From: Escherichia phage vB_EcoM_CRP22 | Direction: 5' to 3' (one strand) | Sequence record: OQ708377.1 | DNA length: 64,000 bases | Shown here: one piece after another, positions 5,712-12,790 of the stretch | How positions within the stretch are numbered: the first letter of the stretch is position 1 | How the letters are laid out: each line of letters begins with the position of its first letter | The notes under the pieces: generated by a model | Seen by the model: the letters and a program-made list of their open reading frames with translations, nothing else | The model's database searches: none | Told to the model about the DNA's origin: nothing | Position numbers and translations under genes: made by a program

Positions 5712-6355
5712 TATACCTCCACTACTGTGATAACTGTAACTGTAACTGTAACTGTTGCCGCATTAGATGTTACAGAGCCACCTGCACCAGTCACTACACA
5801 AGTGTAGATTCCTTCATCAGCAGCAGTTGCACCTTCTTTGGTGTAAGTTGCAGTAGTTGCATCGAGGATGTCTTCCTCACCTTTCTTCCACTGGTAACCT
5901 GTTGCACCTGTTGCCACAACATTCAGCGTTAAGGTATCACCTTCAGTGATTTCTTGATTGGTTGGCTGTTGAGTAATTGATGGTGGCTTGATAGCACCCT
6001 TCAGCTTAGCATTCAGCATTGAGAAGGGCTTAACTCTTGCCAGCCCTTCACAATAAACTGTATCAACATCTTTACCATTGATAATTGCATATTGTAAGTC
6101 CATGAAGAAGTCAGAAGTTCTCATTTGAGCACCGATGCTGTAAAGCAACTCATCACTAAATGGGACTTTGTAGTCTGGTTTGTAGTCAAACTTCTCAACT
6201 TCTGCAATATCAGCTTCAGGCCAATATGAACTATAGGTGAGTGGTAAAATAGCCTCTTGATATGTTCTAAAATCATATCTCTTACCAGCCTTTACATTTG
6301 CGATAAAGCCCTTCACAAACTCTTTGAAGTCTGGGTAAGTCTTTGCTTTAATCAT
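5711..6355 (-). CDS. hypothetical protein with C-terminal Ig-like domain; paralog of upstream gene
   Basis: 214 aa; C-terminal EGDTLTLNVVATGATGYQWKK...GIYTCVVTG is an Ig-like fold signature; N-terminal ~120 aa align with ORF 6352..6723 (FFMDLQYA vs FLMDIQYV); ends in TVTVTVTV from a hexanucleotide repeat. Confidence 0.55.
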   Translation of the reverse strand: MIKAKTYPDFKEFVKGFIANVKAGKRYDFRTYQEAILPLTYSSYWPEADIAEVEKFDYKPDYKVPFSDELLYSIGAQMRTSDFFMDLQYAIINGKDVDTVYCEGLARVKPFSMLNAKLKGAIKPPSITQQPTNQEITEGDTLTLNVVATGATGYQWKKGEEDILDATTATYTKEGATAADEGIYTCVVTGAGGSVTSNAATVTVTVTVITVVEV

Positions 6356-6770: not shown

Positions 6771-7361
6771 TTAAGTCTTGGTCTTAAGTAGGTTCTTAAG
6801 TTTTTTAAGATTCATACTCTCATCAAACTTAAAACCAAATCCATTGACATAATCAATGAACTCGGATTTCTTACTAAGTGACAATGCGTAACTCATATCA
6901 AAGTTCTTACTTGTTTCTGCGTCTGGACTAGAGTTCACATCAAATGAAATTTCTGTAGATTCTTGCTTACTTTTTCTCATATTATCAACCAACAAACATG
7001 TATAGTTTGCTGGATAGAAGTTAACACTACCATCAACGTAGCTATACTTATTATTGTGAATAAGATTGAAAAATACATTAAAGAATGTTTCTGAGTCGTG
7101 GCACACAAGTTTGAATTGGCTGCTCTCTCCAAGCGCAACTAATGAGTACGGACTTTCACTATCAAAGTCATAATTTGGATTAGATGCCGTTACTGTTACA
7201 CGCATCAAGTTATTAGCAATAGTCTTCTGTTTAAAAGAATTTGGGACATAGTGAAGACCTCTATCACACTGATTGACTAGCTCTTTAAGTAGGTCATTTG
7301 CATATGGCGAATTAATTGATACAGAACCATCACTATTGTAATTAAAACTTACTGTTAACAT
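6771..7361 (-). CDS. hypothetical protein
   Basis: 196-aa ORF followed by hairpin aggggcatcagcccct. Confidence 0.45.
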   Translation of the reverse strand: MLTVSFNYNSDGSVSINSPYANDLLKELVNQCDRGLHYVPNSFKQKTIANNLMRVTVTASNPNYDFDSESPYSLVALGESSQFKLVCHDSETFFNVFFNLIHNNKYSYVDGSVNFYPANYTCLLVDNMRKSKQESTEISFDVNSSPDAETSKNFDMSYALSLSKKSEFIDYVNGFGFKFDESMNLKKLKNLLKTKT

Positions 7362-7588
7362 TTTTCAGTTCTCCTGCGATTTATAATTTTGCTGCAATAG
7401 AGAAACGAAGTAAACTCACTGGAAGAAACCATTAAGTGTTGTTCACTAGATTGAGCCATTGCCCTGAAATACATTCCAGTCAAAGCATCGTAGTGACTAT
7501 TCTTTCCAATTGAGGTTATATAGCCATGACTCTTTGCAGTTTTATATAAATCTATAATATCTGCGATTTCTAATTGGGAACTACACAT
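7355..7588 (-). CDS. hypothetical protein
   Basis: 77-aa ORF. Confidence 0.35.
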   Translation of the reverse strand: MCSSQLEIADIIDLYKTAKSHGYITSIGKNSHYDALTGMYFRAMAQSSEQHLMVSSSEFTSFLYCSKIINRRRTEKC

Positions 7589-7980
7589 AGATAATCCTCT
7601 TGTCTTCTGTAATTTTGAAAGAACAGGTACAGACCAATTTCAGAGGATGAATAGTAGAGTAACTCTACCCTTTTTGATTCCTTACAGTGATTGGTATTTT
7701 TACCTTTCTTCGGGTTGTTTGATTTTCTCATTAAGTCTCCTTTGTAGAACAAGGCAGACCTACAGCTTTAAGTAAGATGGTACAGTAATCCATACAACAA
7801 GTCAAGAACTATTGCAAGTTAAAAAAGTTGTTGACAAAGGACTTGACAAGGTGTAGGCTTATAAATACTTAGAAGATAACTTAAAAGGTTCCTCTAAAAA
7901 GGCTATTTAAACAGATATCTTTCTGGATATCTATCTTTTATCTTAAAAGCCTTTTAAGAGGTCTTATAAGAGGCATACCA

Positions 7981-8352
7981 ATGAAAAACAGAACAAACAA
8001 AGGCCAGTTTAAAAAAGGCCAGTCTGGAAACCCATCTGGAAGACCAAAAGGCTCTCGTAACAAAAGCTCACTTGTAAAAGCTCAACTGACCATTGATAAT
8101 TCTGCTGAGTTTGCTGCAAAGTTGTTTGAGGCGATTGTTACAAGGGACGCTGCTAAGCTTGCAGAGTTCGGTTTGACGACTGACGATGTAAACCTGAAGT
8201 CAATGATGGAAGCTGGTAAAACTATCATGACTCACTCAGCAGGTGAGATGAAAGCAATTGCAGCAGACACTAAGAAAACCACTGATAATGGTGGTCAGCC
8301 ACAGACAGATAACAAACCGACGTTCTCTGCTGTAGCGACTCTCAAAAAATAA
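7981..8352 (+). CDS. hypothetical protein with basic Gly/Pro-rich N-terminus
   Basis: 123 aa; ATG preceded by AAGAGG; N-terminal GNPSGRPKGSRNK motif. Confidence 0.45.
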   Translation: MKNRTNKGQFKKGQSGNPSGRPKGSRNKSSLVKAQLTIDNSAEFAAKLFEAIVTRDAAKLAEFGLTTDDVNLKSMMEAGKTIMTHSAGEMKAIAADTKKTTDNGGQPQTDNKPTFSAVATLKK

Positions 8353-9849: not shown

Positions 9850-9867
9850 AAAGTTTTGAAAAGGGTA

Positions 9868-9896
9868 TTGACAATGTGTTTAATACCCTTTAATAT
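9868..9896 (+). promoter_or_regulatory. sigma70-like promoter embedded in an inverted repeat, upstream of tRNA array
   Basis: TTGACA - 17 nt - TAATAT; flanked by aagggtatt ... aataccctt. Confidence 0.5.
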
Positions 9897-10014
9897 GTTC
9901 TACATAGAAACGAAATGAGAGCTTTTCTAAGATACTGAAAAATATTTTAAAAAAGTTCTTGACAACCACTAAAAAATAATGTTAAAGTGGTTACATAGAG
10001 TTTGAAAAGTTTAT

Positions 10015-10091
10015 CTCTGTTTAGCTCAGCTTGGTAGAGCGTTCCGTTTGGGGCGGTAAGGCCGGAGGTTCAAGTCCTCCAACAGAGACCA
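10015..10091 (+). tRNA. tRNA-Pro (anticodon TGG)
   Basis: 7-bp acceptor ctctgtt/aacagag, D-arm GCTCAGCTTGGTAGAGC, T-arm ggagg-ttcaagt-cctcc, CCA encoded. Confidence 0.75.
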
Positions 10092-10098
10092 AATTAAT

Positions 10099-10176
10099 GT
10101 TCCAGTAGACAAAATGGTATAGTCACCACTCTTTCAAAGTGGATATTTGAGGGTTCAAATCCCTTCTGGAACGCCA
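10099..10176 (+). tRNA. tRNA-Glu (anticodon TTC)
   Basis: Acceptor gttccag/ctggaac, anticodon stem ccact/agtgg with loop ctTTCaa, T-loop ttcaaat, CCA. Confidence 0.75.
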
Positions 10177-10267
10177 GTTTTGACAGAAGACCAATTACAG
10201 CAAGTTTAATCTTATTCATCTGACACGAAATCGGACAAAGAAGAGATTTGGTCTGGTCATTAAGAAT

Positions 10268-10344: not shown

Positions 10345-10421
10345 ATTTTGCAGAAGACCGTATTCAGCAACAAACTACTTTTTGCGGATAAAAGAAAAAA
10401 CACGGTCTGGCAATGTATTAA

Positions 10422-10506: not shown

Positions 10507-10594
10507 GTGTCGTTATCCCGTAGATGGTAGCGGTGGGGACTGTAAATCCCTTGTCATTGAGACTCGGTAGGTTCGACTCCTACACGGCACACCA
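10507..10594 (+). tRNA. tRNA-Tyr (anticodon GTA), long variable arm
   Basis: Acceptor gtgtcgt/acggcac, anticodon stem gggga/tccct with loop ctGTAaa, long extra arm, T-arm gtagg-ttcgact-cctac, CCA. Confidence 0.7.
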
Positions 10595-10616
10595 ACACTT
10601 AGCGAGATACTTAGTT

Positions 10617-11045
10617 ATGAGAGATGAAGTATACAAATCACAACTTGGTATGAGTTTAGGAACTGCACAAAACAGACTAGTAAAAGATTTGCTATTCGAT
10701 TTTATATGTAAAACAAATCAAAATAGATGTTTTCAGTGCGGAAAAGAAATGACTAGGGATGATTTCTCCATCGAGCATAAGGTTCCGTGGAGACATAGTG
10801 AAAACGCAAAAGAGCTTTTCTTTTCACTGGATAATATCTCTTATAGTCATCTTAAATGTAATATGAAAGCAGCAAGACCAGCACAGATAAGTGAAAGAAA
10901 ACATAAAACAGTTGAACACGGAACTGCGTATAGCTATTACAAAGGCTGTAGATGCGAGGAGTGTAGGTTGGCTAAGAATGCTGCTAGCAGGAAGAACTAT
11001 AGCCCAGAAAGGCGTAGGAAGAAGTATTTAAGAAATGGCACATAG
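10617..11045 (+). CDS. HNH endonuclease (free-standing, inside tRNA array)
   Basis: 143 aa from internal ATG; CFQCGKEM...EHKVPW...HLKCN zinc-binding HNH-like motifs; the track ORF start at 10524 overlaps tRNA-Tyr and is rejected. Confidence 0.7.
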   Translation: MRDEVYKSQLGMSLGTAQNRLVKDLLFDFICKTNQNRCFQCGKEMTRDDFSIEHKVPWRHSENAKELFFSLDNISYSHLKCNMKAARPAQISERKHKTVEHGTAYSYYKGCRCEECRLAKNAASRKNYSPERRRKKYLRNGT

Positions 11046-11049
11046 TTTT

Positions 11050-11125
11050 GGGGTATTAGTTTAGACGGTTAAAATACGGGATTGTCTCTCCTGAGCCGCG
11101 AGTTCGATTCTCGCATACCTCGCCA
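11050..11125 (+). tRNA. tRNA-Asp (anticodon GTC)
   Basis: Acceptor ggggtat/atacctc, anticodon stem cggga/tcctg with loop ttGTCtc, T-arm gcgag-ttcgatt-ctcgc, CCA. Confidence 0.7.
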
Positions 11126-11273
11126 ATTTTGAGAGGGCTATTTAGCCCCTCCCTTAAAGAGTTATTACGAGTATTCTTTAAAGGAGCAGAAGACCAAATT
11201 CAGCAAGTTACTTAAAATTTCAAGCCAATTTAATTTTGAAAAATTTAAAACTTGGTCTGGCTTAACAAATTTA

Positions 11274-11404
11274 CAGAAGACCGTTTACAGCAAAACTTAA
11301 ACAATCTATTTCTCGGTAAAGAAAAGGCGAAGGTTCGATTCCTTCACTCGGCAGATGTCGAGTTGGTGTAATGGTAGCACTTAAGATGATAAACAACGGT
11401 CTGG
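11274..11404 (+). ncRNA. Candidate structured ncRNA: circularly permuted tRNA-like module enclosed by an 8-bp stem (possible Y-RNA/YrlA-like element)
   Basis: Linear order is stem strand agaccgtt, T-arm gaagg-ttcgatt-ccttc, acceptor 3' strand actcggc, 4-nt loop, acceptor 5' strand gtcgagt, D-arm gtgt-aatggta-gcac, stem strand aacggtct; the acceptor halves pair over 7 bp. Confidence 0.35.
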
Positions 11405-11405
11405 T

Positions 11406-11551
11406 AATTATCTTTGCAGTAGCTTATGTGGCTAATTATGTCGTCCCATGAGTGCCGATGAATTTCCTTAGCATGATTCTAGATTAGCTTAATAGGGAAT
11501 GACTCTACAGACCCTTTAGCAAGGTCTGCGTAGGTTACTGCAAAGATAATT
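11406..11551 (+). ncRNA. Candidate structured RNA domain closed by a 16-bp stem
   Basis: aattatctttgcagta (11406-11421) is the perfect reverse complement of tactgcaaagataatt (11535-11550), enclosing ~112 nt with an internal cagacc...ggtctg hairpin. Confidence 0.3.
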
Positions 11552-11555
11552 TAAT

Positions 11556-11631
11556 GGAAGTGTAGCAGAATGGTGATGCGGCAGACTTTTAATCTGACAG
11601 GCGATGGGTTCGAATCCATCCACTTCTACCA
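11556..11631 (+). tRNA. tRNA-Lys (anticodon TTT)
   Basis: Acceptor ggaagtg/cacttct, anticodon loop ctTTTaa, T-loop ttcgaat, CCA. Confidence 0.6.
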
Positions 11632-11805: not shown

Positions 11806-11834
11806 TTGACATTGAGATGTGACCACTTTATAGT
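11806..11834 (+). promoter_or_regulatory. sigma70-like promoter inside the tRNA array
   Basis: TTGACA - 17 nt - TATAGT, preceded by A-rich tract aaagttg. Confidence 0.5.
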
Positions 11835-12126: not shown

Positions 12127-12208
12127 CGGGGCGTATCTCAGCTGTCTTCTAAACAGCCGTTAACCGAGTAAGTGGAGTATGCGGGTTCGAGTCCTGCCGC
12201 CTCGACCA
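12127..12208 (+). tRNA. Atypical tRNA-like gene, possibly Arg (anticodon TCT); D-arm not resolvable
   Basis: Acceptor cggggcg/cgcctcg, T-arm gcggg-ttcgagt-cctgc, CCA; clean stem gctgt/acagc with loop ctTCTaa but no canonical D-arm by eye. Confidence 0.4.
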
Positions 12209-12707: not shown

Positions 12708-12790
12708 ATGGGACGATGTTAAGACTCTAAGGCATGAGCAACGGCTTCCAACACCGTTTCAAAGGGGTTCAACTCCTCCGTCCCATGCCA
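12708..12790 (+). tRNA. Atypical tRNA-like gene with an apparent 9-nt anticodon loop
   Basis: Perfect acceptor atgggac/gtcccat, T-loop ttcaact, CCA; best anticodon helix aacgg/ccgtt encloses cttccaaca (9 nt); D-region longer than canonical. Confidence 0.4.

Follow-up and report, generated by a model that had tools for sequence, protein, structure and literature searches.

The tRNA gene cluster of Escherichia phage vB_EcoM_CRP22 contains an RNA element, designated E4, in which the arms of a tRNA are arranged in circularly permuted order. The window, i.e. the whole stretch of DNA analyzed (64,000 nucleotides (nt) of sequence record OQ708377.1), derives from a Felix O1-like phage (Felixounavirus) and has the same gene order as Felix O1. 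E4 is neither a permuted gene for a decoding tRNA nor a recombination scar. It is quite probably a phage non-coding RNA of the Y-RNA type, built like the tRNA mimic YrlA, whose paired ends would serve as a "handle" for a Ro60-like protein. The gene encoding this proposed partner is located on the same strand, with the start of E4 lying 1.42 kb past its stop codon; this proximity, together with the YrlA-type architecture, supports the Y-RNA reading already raised in the initial annotation. The interpretation draws on computational results concerning RNA folding and covariation, paralogous elements in the window, a modeled protein fold resembling Ro60, and the way in which handle RNAs accompany genes for homologs of this protein with specificity of strand and position.

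Structure and setting of E4

E4 is located in a 430-nt gap between the genes for tRNA-Asp (11050–11125) and tRNA-Lys (11556–11631), surrounded by a cluster of 25 tRNAs called in the window by ARAGORN, all on the + strand. The gap has matches in 251 phage records and is without annotation in nearly all of the best-matching records listed. No tRNA was called by ARAGORN within positions 11126–11555, and the Rfam tRNA model recognized a T arm alone in the gap (model positions 43–63; 14.9 bits, E value 3.5). A scan of the window and 11 related loci with Rfam 15, which includes the metazoan Y_RNA family, gave only tRNA matches above the gathering score, and these loci revealed no Rfam family for the handle, which is recognizable by its CAGCAA motif. 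When E values of up to 10 were admitted, region 11100–11580 yielded just the T-arm fragment and chance matches of the small nucleolar RNA type.

The initial annotation had placed a T arm and an acceptor 3′ strand ahead of an acceptor 5′ strand and a D arm. All four are present where it placed them (Table 1), and the acceptor halves do pair over 7 base pairs (bp), including one G-U. Its further claim, that no matching 5′ half lies upstream of the T arm and no second T arm downstream, is borne out by the silence of ARAGORN and the restriction of the Rfam match to the T arm. The element is not a pair of ordinary adjacent tRNAs, and its description as a circularly permuted tRNA-like element is upheld. 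The limits originally assigned (11274–11404) span CAGAAGACC to GGTCTGG; an outer helix of 4 bp extends E4 by three nucleotides on either side.

Minimum free energy (MFE) folds of E4 alone and of the entire gap agree, both giving one 4-arm junction. Inside the closing helix come, in this order, the V hairpin, the T arm, the closed acceptor hairpin of 7 bp and the D arm; the analog of the anticodon stem opens into a 10/14-nt internal loop that leads to the handle helices. With its D loop AAUGGUA and T loop UUCGAUU, E4 contains the nucleotides engaged in tRNA tertiary contacts (U8, A14, G18-G19, A21, U54-U55-C56 and A58), and these positions are kept in 11–13 of 13 near and distant relatives. A kink-turn reading of the asymmetric AGA/G loop in the handle was dropped, since the loop contains no tandem G-A pairs.

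The order of the halves (3′ ahead of 5′) and the 7-bp acceptor helix would fit a gene of the kind known from the red alga Cyanidioschyzon merolae, in which a permuted tRNA transcript is circularized and re-cut to a decoding tRNA. This explanation, offered in the initial annotation, is nevertheless very improbable. E4 has no 7-nt anticodon loop, its place being taken by the internal loop, the handle and the outer helix; the acceptor is closed by a 4-nt loop with no CCA; neither ARAGORN nor Rfam calls a tRNA at this site; and the closing helix is shared with three sister elements that have no tRNA part (see below). Bacteria are also not known to possess the archaeal/eukaryal splicing endonuclease used in the permuted-tRNA pathway.

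Table 1. Positions of E4, related elements and neighboring features (window coordinates unless a locus number is given)
Feature	Position	Strand	Basis or remarks
E4, YrlA-like RNA	11271–11407	+	MFE folds, covariance model R1, covariation count
E4 outer helix UUAC/GUAA	11271–11274 / 11404–11407	+	fold
E4 asymmetric internal loop AGA (5′ side) / G (3′ side)	11275–11277 / 11403	+	fold
E4 8-bp handle helix AGACCGUU/AACGGUCU	11278–11285 / 11395–11402	+	fold
E4 motif UACAGCAA, 5′ side of internal loop	11286–11293	+	
E4 tRNA-like module	11296–11385	+	sequence, folds, covariation
Anticodon-stem analog, 4 bp, CUUA/UAAG	11296–11299 / 11382–11385	+	
V hairpin	11305–11327	+	
T arm GAAGG-UUCGAUU-CCUUC	11329–11345	+	
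Acceptor hairpin	11346–11363	+	7 bp, one G-U
Acceptor 3′ strand ACUCGGC	11346–11352	+	
Acceptor loop AGAU, no CCA	11353–11356	+	
Acceptor 5′ strand GUCGAGU	11357–11363	+	
U8-G9 (TG in DNA)	11364–11365	+	
D arm GUGU-AAUGGUA-GCAC	11366–11380	+	
E1, short Y-like RNA	10181–10259	+	outer helix UGAC/GUCA, AGA/G loop, handle AGACCAA/UUGGUCU, UUACAGCAA motif
E2, short Y-like RNA	10348–10413	+	outer helix UUGC/GCAA, AGA/G loop, handle AGACCGU/ACGGUCU, AUUCAGCAA motif
E3, short Y-like RNA	11184–11263	+	outer helix GAGC/GCUU, AGA/G loop, handle AGACCAA/UUGGUCU, AUUCAGCAA motif
Conserved structured RNA, ~148-nt long hairpin (possible E5)	11404–11556	+	fold z-score −5.84
Mini-hairpin AGACC-CUUUAGCAA-GGUCU-G, like a minimal handle	11509–11528	+	RNAalifold
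E2-type insert motif	E2 10362–10401; L082 (Mycobacterium phage Crossroads) 5448–5498; L062 5877–5934		
Ro60-like protein gene, 471 amino acids	8434–9849	+	HEAT-repeat ring and vWA domain with MIDAS motif DVSGSM (MIDAS, adhesion site that depends on metal ions)
Two sigma-70-like promoter matches	9868–9896 and 9959–9988	+	10/12 consensus positions each
Normal-order tRNA-like genes with closed handle insert, acceptor ending CCA	L037 7895–8015, 8025–8137; L046 ~9850–9975; L052 ~10020–10135; L069		

Sister elements, conservation and covariation

The + strand of the tRNA cluster holds four copies of the sequence CAGAAGACC (at 10184, 10351, 11187 and 11274), each with GGTCTGG 50–120 nt downstream, and the four resulting elements were designated E1–E4. 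E1–E3 are short stem-loops of 66–80 nt, and the tRNA-like insert is confined to E4. Common to all four are the AGA/G loop, a helix starting with AGACC and the sequence U-W-CAGCAA, which together with a covarying outer helix make up a shared handle of the form CAGA-AGACC..-UWCAGCAA ... GGUCU-G. Compensated differences among the elements are seen in the outer 4 bp and where the helix ends on its inner side. Handle elements of the window stand 3–8 nt from the flanking tRNAs: E1 begins 4 nt past tRNA-Glu and ends 8 nt ahead of tRNA-Met, while the corresponding distances for E2 are 3 nt (tRNA-Met) and 8 nt (tRNA-Asn).

E4 is about 80–100% identical (lowest listed value 79.7%) in 239 phage records, the number in which at least 80% of region 11180–11412 is covered. 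A covariance model, R1, was built with the proposed structure from only 7 Felix-like copies of E4. Through the handle it reaches E1 (45.5 bits, E value 1.6e-7) and E2 (41.3 bits) of the window; E3 was not listed under default filters, despite fitting the handle pattern. In distant phage contigs, full-length matches were obtained at loci L019 (5369–5515; 59.9 bits) and L062 (59.7 bits), each with an E value of ~5e-11, followed by L019 again (5749–5887; 42.4 bits), L081 (5114–5246; 41.8 bits), L037 (35.3 bits) and L081 (4073–4214; 34.0 bits). Of the 43 matches in this search, 42 lie on the strand of the gene encoding the Ro60-like homolog. In a separate search, R1 also detected the tRNA-like element of Mycobacterium phage Crossroads (26.9 bits).

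MAFFT misplaced the 3′ halves of 16 diverged elements and was replaced by a hand parse (five entries corrected by eye) and an Infernal alignment. In the 23-sequence Infernal alignment 93.0% of pair cells are paired, compared to 61.7% after shuffling (reached in 0 of 500 shuffles) and at most 45% with partners slid, and in the hand-made structural alignment of 13 distinct elements 98.6% compared to 62.3%; since the former was fitted to the structure by Infernal and the latter by eye, both percentages are inflated. Changes on both sides were found for 27 of 28 pairs of the 23-sequence alignment, with every helix contributing, and for 11 of the 12 pairs of the outer and handle helices (helices 1 and 2). 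Independent MFE folds of relatives from other phages gave the same set of arms.

The initial annotation had also considered a recombination scar, and a tRNA pseudogene decaying under homing-endonuclease traffic would be in keeping with the HNH endonuclease open reading frames (ORFs) scattered through the tRNA cluster. Such an origin is extremely improbable: it is contradicted by the conservation of E4 in the 239 records and by compensatory change extending to distant phages. Within the Felix subfamily the acceptor helix has been swapped with compensation (ACUCGGC/GUCGAGU, ACACG/CGUGU, ACCCUUC/GAAGGGU), and the same architecture recurs in phages whose Ro60-like proteins share just 39–47% identity.

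Two further features extend the set of handle elements. The structured RNA at 11404–11556, which overlaps the outer helix of E4 by 2 nt, shows 9 pairs with compensatory change in an RNAalifold analysis of 7 Ounavirinae copies. The mini-hairpin within it covaries (AGACC/GGUCU to AAACC/GGUUU) and is retained at L002 and L004, where the interior has been replaced by unrelated sequence; it may represent a fifth, minimal handle (E5). The insert of E2 holds the sequence UUUGCGGAUAAAAGAAA, found again in an element of Mycobacterium phage Crossroads. A motif of this insert type (UUUGCGGAUAA-AAGAAA or UUUUGCAUAGAAA) is common to very distant phages, which suggests a second conserved sub-class of handle RNAs.

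The two sigma-70-like promoter matches are situated between the Ro60-like gene and the first tRNA. No terminator-like site was detected on the + strand from 9988 to ~11800, and the next promoter-like site lies at 11806. Judged from these sequence motifs, the promoter matches are likely to mark the start of a polycistron of tRNAs and Y-like RNAs, and with no intervening terminator-like site, it is plausible that the Y-like RNAs are transcribed together with the tRNAs and freed when these are processed. Between tRNA-Asp and E3, the + strand at 11131–11183 contains two hairpins, GAGAGGGCU-AUUU-AGCCCCUCCC and then CUUUAAAGAG...UUCUUUAAAG, with no U run after either.

The window also includes two tRNA-like genes on the + strand that escaped calling. 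The first (12127–12208), detected by neither ARAGORN nor Rfam, has the acceptor CGGGGCG/CGCCUCG followed by ACCA, 5 nt in place of the D arm, an anticodon arm GCUGU-CUUCUAA-ACAGC whose anticodon is UCU, a variable region of 23 nt and a normal T arm. Its anticodon stem is compensated elsewhere (GCGGU/ACCGC), and the start of an HNH ORF (program-read and annotated) overlaps its T arm. The second (12708–12790) has the acceptor AUGGGAC/GUCCCAU followed by G-CCA, the T loop UUCAACU and a possible anticodon loop UUCCAAC (CCA, Trp); tRNA-Trp is absent among the 25 called tRNAs.

The Ro60-like protein and handle RNAs in other phages

The product of the Ro60-like gene matches the Pfam families DUF2828 (E value 2.8e-29) and DUF7788 (3.1e-43) and falls in PHROG 850, "RNA-binding protein". 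A phmmer search against PDB sequences returned nothing relevant. An AlphaFold2 model based on 40 homologs (pLDDT 88, pTM 0.88) was compared with PDB structures using Foldseek. The top 11 matches were all Ro60/TROVE (E values 2e-8 to 1.4e-6; TMq 0.49–0.67), among them Ro60 of Thermus phage phiLo and of Xenopus, human complexes and Deinococcus radiodurans Rsr, and vWA domains came next. Full-length alignments of 513–545 columns with a probability of 1.00 were obtained with 9kop, 2i91, 1yvr, 1yvp, 9l5y and 2nvo. The MIDAS residues D279-V-S281-x-S283-M (DxSxS) are invariant across the 40 homologs. Homologous proteins are encoded in 709 phage records, and those of mycobacteriophages carry the annotation "Ro-like RNA binding protein".

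An HNH endonuclease ORF (10524–11045, + strand, program-read) begins inside the tRNA-Tyr gene (10507–10594). This insertion moves E3 and E4 ~0.5 kb farther from the Ro60-like gene than in Felix O1, in which tRNA-Tyr is flagged as a pseudogene.

The association of handle RNAs with this type of gene was analyzed in 80 viral contigs encoding DUF2828 homologs (39–99% identity), many of which contain an orphan T arm, acceptor hairpin and D arm preceded by ...CAGCAA. The fixed-register handle pattern, derived from these contigs, comprised a helix with a 5′ strand starting with A, G or U followed by G; C-N-G-C-A-A 10 nt after this start; and a complementary 3′ strand followed by an unpaired G. It gave 173 matches on the gene strand compared to 17 on the opposite one (a bias of ~10-fold), with at least one match in 64 of the 80 loci. 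On the gene strand, handle density was 1.13/kb in the first kb downstream of the gene, 0.39/kb in the first kb upstream and ~0.04/kb beyond 2 kb, i.e. an enrichment of ~25-fold within 1 kb. E1–E4 fit this arrangement, lying beside the gene on its strand. A looser scan (any YNGCA, variable spacing), with 1055 matches on the + strand and 892 on the − strand, was uninformative, and the fixed-register pattern was used instead.

Contigs bearing handles often have no predicted tRNA at all, and the handles are thus tied to the DUF2828 gene and not to tRNA clusters. They also flank this gene in all four further phages sampled: three handles, the middle one tRNA-like, lie directly downstream of it in Mycobacterium phage Crossroads, three lie upstream of it in Listeria phage LMSP-25, and others are found beside it in Staphylococcus phage 6ec and Campylobacter phage F357. 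In LMSP-25 (L083), a gene for an RtcB-type "tRNA-splicing ligase" (6811–8022) is located 1.3 kb downstream of the DUF2828 gene, a placement that recalls the bacterial rsr-yrlBA-rtcBA operon. As regards a link to phage RNA repair, RtcB was found nearby in this Listeria phage only; Felix O1 has a polynucleotide kinase and no annotated RNA ligase.

Handles are also combined with tRNA bodies of normal order. At locus L037, the Rfam tRNA model aligned over its positions 1–71, scoring 56.9 and 40.9 bits, and the anticodon loop was replaced by an insert of 55 or 52 nt. This insert is the handle, closed as a hairpin by a GAYA loop (CAAACU-G-AYA-AGUUUG-UAUUCAGCA). In such normal-order members the acceptor is open and ends in CCA and the handle is closed, whereas in permuted members the acceptor is closed and the handle open. 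E4 follows the L037 design, except that it is the handle that is open and the acceptor that is closed: in E4 the counterpart of the G-AYA hairpin loop is the G...AGA internal loop, which accommodates the inserted RNA ends and outer helix. The designs found at L037, L046, L052 and L069, set beside that of E4, show that one family contains both normal-order and permuted tRNA bodies.

In 7 of 13 permuted relatives the acceptor-closing loop begins with N73-CCA, and these CCA-bearing loops are 8–19 nt long (L013, L019, L037, L062 and L081). RNase P cleavage has been demonstrated for YrlA of Mycobacterium smegmatis, which has a 7-bp acceptor followed by CCA (PMC4201824). By analogy, the N73-CCA loops suggest that RNase P cleavage, together with 3′ trimming, may leave a free CCA end and produce two-piece RNAs with a true tRNA terminus. 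The encoded CCA of many members likewise suggests Y RNAs that pass through a tRNA-processing, and possibly charging, pathway.

Other inserts were observed as well. A handle RNA at L062 (8329–8428) contains a D arm, an anticodon-like stem-loop and a T arm in normal order (Rfam tRNA positions 5–66), with the handle replacing the acceptor stem, an orientation like that reported for D. radiodurans Yrn1. Handle RNAs with non-tRNA inserts of 130–250 nt are located at L017 (353–566 and 2595–2842), L018 (864–1109), L020 (7471–7722), L030 (4793–5033), L042 (7521–7763), L033/L034 and L053/L068. Several of these large inserts share long conserved stretches, e.g. ...GCCGAAGAUGUAAAAAGAGAUAUAGCUGCCGAGC..., and none of these RNAs matched an Rfam family.

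The position of E4 inside the tRNA cluster, the conservation of its elbow nucleotides (U8, G18-G19 and the T loop) and the N73-CCA following the acceptor strand in many of its relatives would also fit a free-standing tRNA decoy. Such an RNA would act independently of the Ro60-like protein, for example by soaking up or luring a host nuclease that targets tRNAs or a defence protein that binds them, with the handle as no more than a processing or stability element; the finding that gp130 of phage Bas63 counters Ppl without RNAs (PMC11482910) also agrees with this. We nevertheless regard a decoy of this kind as unlikely, because the handle is the most conserved part of these RNAs, is common to paralogs with no tRNA module, and accompanies the DUF2828 gene, on the strand of that gene, also where a contig lacks any predicted tRNA.

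Clustering of the handles on the gene strand at distances of up to 1 kb and their short distance from tRNAs in the window might instead reflect a cis-acting signal, the handles being RNase sites or autoregulatory operator hairpins in the Ro60-like mRNA or the tRNA precursor. This is improbable, given that promoter-like sites separate the handles of the window from the gene and that large, independently folding, covarying modules, some of them complete tRNA bodies with CCA, would be superfluous for an operator or cleavage site.

A YrlA-like role of E4 could be realized as follows. In the predicted fold its 5′ and 3′ ends pair into a bipartite closing helix, the handle, composed of the outer 4 bp, the AGA/G loop, the 8-bp helix starting with AG, and the unpaired motif UACAGCAA. 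By analogy with known Y RNAs, the handle would be the docking site for the Ro60-like ring protein, and the variable module would tether a partner or gate access to the ring. In E4 this effector module, predicted to fold into a tRNA elbow, may stabilize the RNA and recruit tRNA-binding host factors (modification enzymes, RNase P or an exonuclease). Since E1–E3, and possibly the fifth copy within 11404–11556, carry the handle on other inserts, the phage would produce a few Y-like RNAs for tethering or gating a single protein. Transcription of these RNAs probably proceeds jointly with that of the tRNAs from the putative promoters at ~9868 and ~9959, and the machinery that processes tRNAs probably sets them free. 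Their biological role is probably RNA surveillance or counter-defence.

Several observations weigh against this interpretation. The TROVE family of Pfam (PF05731) gives no match to the Ro60-like protein, and the YrlA signature GNCGAAN0-1G is missing from the 5′ region of E1–E4 in a regular-expression search of the E1, E2 and E3–E5 gaps. The Levitt pair 15:48 is non-canonical in the Felix-like copies (A15/C48 in E4 and A/A in others), and distant relatives have G:C (4) or A:U (3). The total number of promoter matches equals the shuffle expectation, the matches being to the consensus only. Sharing a locus with the gene does not prove binding, and the inflated pairing percentages noted above belong here too. 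Finally, plaquing on a Ppl host is restored when gp130 is supplied by itself, either on a plasmid or in the T7 genome (PMC11482910). Its anti-Ppl activity therefore needs no phage RNAs, which may regulate the protein or extend its role and not enable it.

The DUF2828 branch is represented in more than 700 sequenced phages, whose hosts belong to the Proteobacteria, Firmicutes, Actinobacteria and Campylobacterota; several studies on plants mention DUF2828 as well. The chances seem evenly balanced that the handle (a helix with RG start, YCAGCAA, and C(U/A)-G at the 3′ side) defines a pan-phage family of modular Y-like RNAs, with normal and permuted tRNA bodies, that are cognate partners of the DUF2828 branch of Ro60 and could be used in phage-host conflict.

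Significance and relation to known systems

Conservation of Y RNAs and Ro60 reaches from bacteria to humans, yet their function is poorly understood, and the phage versions have barely been studied. The present results point to specific RNAs as candidate partners of a Ro60-like protein from a group of E. coli and Salmonella phages that is convenient to work with and in which this protein already has a genetic phenotype (the Bas63 ortholog gp130 against Ppl). The handle is a simple signature of sequence and structure by which such RNAs can be located in hundreds of phages with unannotated intergenic DNA. The coexistence of normal and permuted members shows a stepwise route from a tRNA to a protein-tethering RNA and, if the proposed pairing of RNA and protein is true, hints at the type of ligand bound by the uncharacterized DUF2828 proteins of plants.

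In the permuted tRNA genes of Cyanidioschyzon merolae and in genes for two-piece transfer-messenger RNA (tmRNA), the T arm and acceptor 3′ strand are likewise encoded upstream of the acceptor 5′ strand and D region. E4 differs from both in having no anticodon loop, tag reading frame or pseudoknots and in closing its acceptor with a 4-nt loop; an ARAGORN tmRNA search of the window reported none.

YrlA is a Y RNA mimicking tRNA, described in Salmonella Typhimurium, M. smegmatis and over 250 bacteria and phages (Chen et al. 2014, PMC4201824; structure, 10.1101/312249), and bacterial YrlA RNAs have been likened to circularly permuted tRNAs. RNAs of this type are bound by Ro60 and contain pseudouridine 55 and dihydrouridine (Chen et al. 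2014). In S. Typhimurium YrlA, the T, acceptor-like and D stem-loops follow in this order between the two strands of the anticodon stem (PMC4201824, 10.1101/312249). E4 resembles YrlA in its modular construction with a closing stem formed by the paired 5′ and 3′ ends, in the effector order (V)-T arm-acceptor hairpin-D arm and an anticodon stem that passes into the closing stem, in its location within about 4 kb of a Ro60-type gene on the same strand (here Ro60-like by fold and not by Pfam TROVE), and in the presence of shorter sister Y RNAs. Some relatives of E4 also have a 7-bp acceptor followed by CCA, as does M. smegmatis YrlA. The differences are a handle of its own (a helix starting with RG, YCAGCAA 2–4 nt later, and an unpaired G after the 3′ strand), a partner protein of the DUF2828/DUF7788 rather than the TROVE type, and a handle family that includes non-permuted tRNA-like members. 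The sole literal match to the YrlA signature, GGCGAAGG at 11326, lies at the V/T junction and reads GGAGAAGG in L004, L011 and L013; CGGUUAYC was not found in the E1, E2 and E3–E5 gaps.

Phages with canonical Ro60 were located by tblastn with a human Ro60 query, which served this purpose only, and were confirmed by their own annotations. The 357 phage records obtained derive mostly from Mycobacterium cluster C and Streptomyces phages; phages of Escherichia or Salmonella are absent from their organism summary. The RNAs beside Ro60 in ET08 and StarPlatinum carry GNCGAA...CGGUUAYC and a permuted tRNA-like module. The CAGCAA handle was not found at these two loci, and model R1 does not detect the ET08 YrlA. 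This contrast in motifs therefore indicates two classes of handle, each with its own branch of the Ro60 fold, combined with a similar tRNA-like effector module.

YrlB and Yrn2 are short hairpin Y RNAs, and in D. radiodurans Yrn2, tRNA-Asp and Yrn1 are made as a single precursor (PMC4201824). Like them, E1–E3 share the proposed protein-binding stem with a tRNA-like RNA and are encoded in tandem; unlike them, they have another stem motif, form a set of 4–5 copies instead of 1–2, and are interleaved with genuine tRNA genes.

Thermus phage phiLo combines a phage Ro60 ring with the adjacent phage Y-like RNAs Yrl1 and Yrl2 (PMC12135203; PDB 9KOP, 9L5Y), as proposed here, and its Ro60 is the best and the fourth-best structural match to the protein of the window. 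phiLo Ro60 was recognized as a Ro60 homolog by a UniProt search and the RNAs by a CGAA motif in an internal bulge, and the available part of that report mentions no tRNA-like module (PMC12135203). A literature search, whose limited coverage does not prove novelty, found no description of RNAs of the E1–E4 type.

The closest comparison is with Bas63, also a Felixounavirus, whose Ro60-like gp130 is encoded directly upstream of tRNA genes, counters the Ppl defence and is needed for good plaquing on a Ppl host (PhageMaP preprint, PMC11482910). Because of the shared genus and gene position upstream of tRNAs, gp130 is very probably an ortholog of the Ro60-like protein described here. The authors of that study speculated that some of the annotated tRNAs of Bas63 are Y RNAs (PMC11482910); the candidates presented here differ in that they lie in unannotated gaps and not among the annotated tRNAs.

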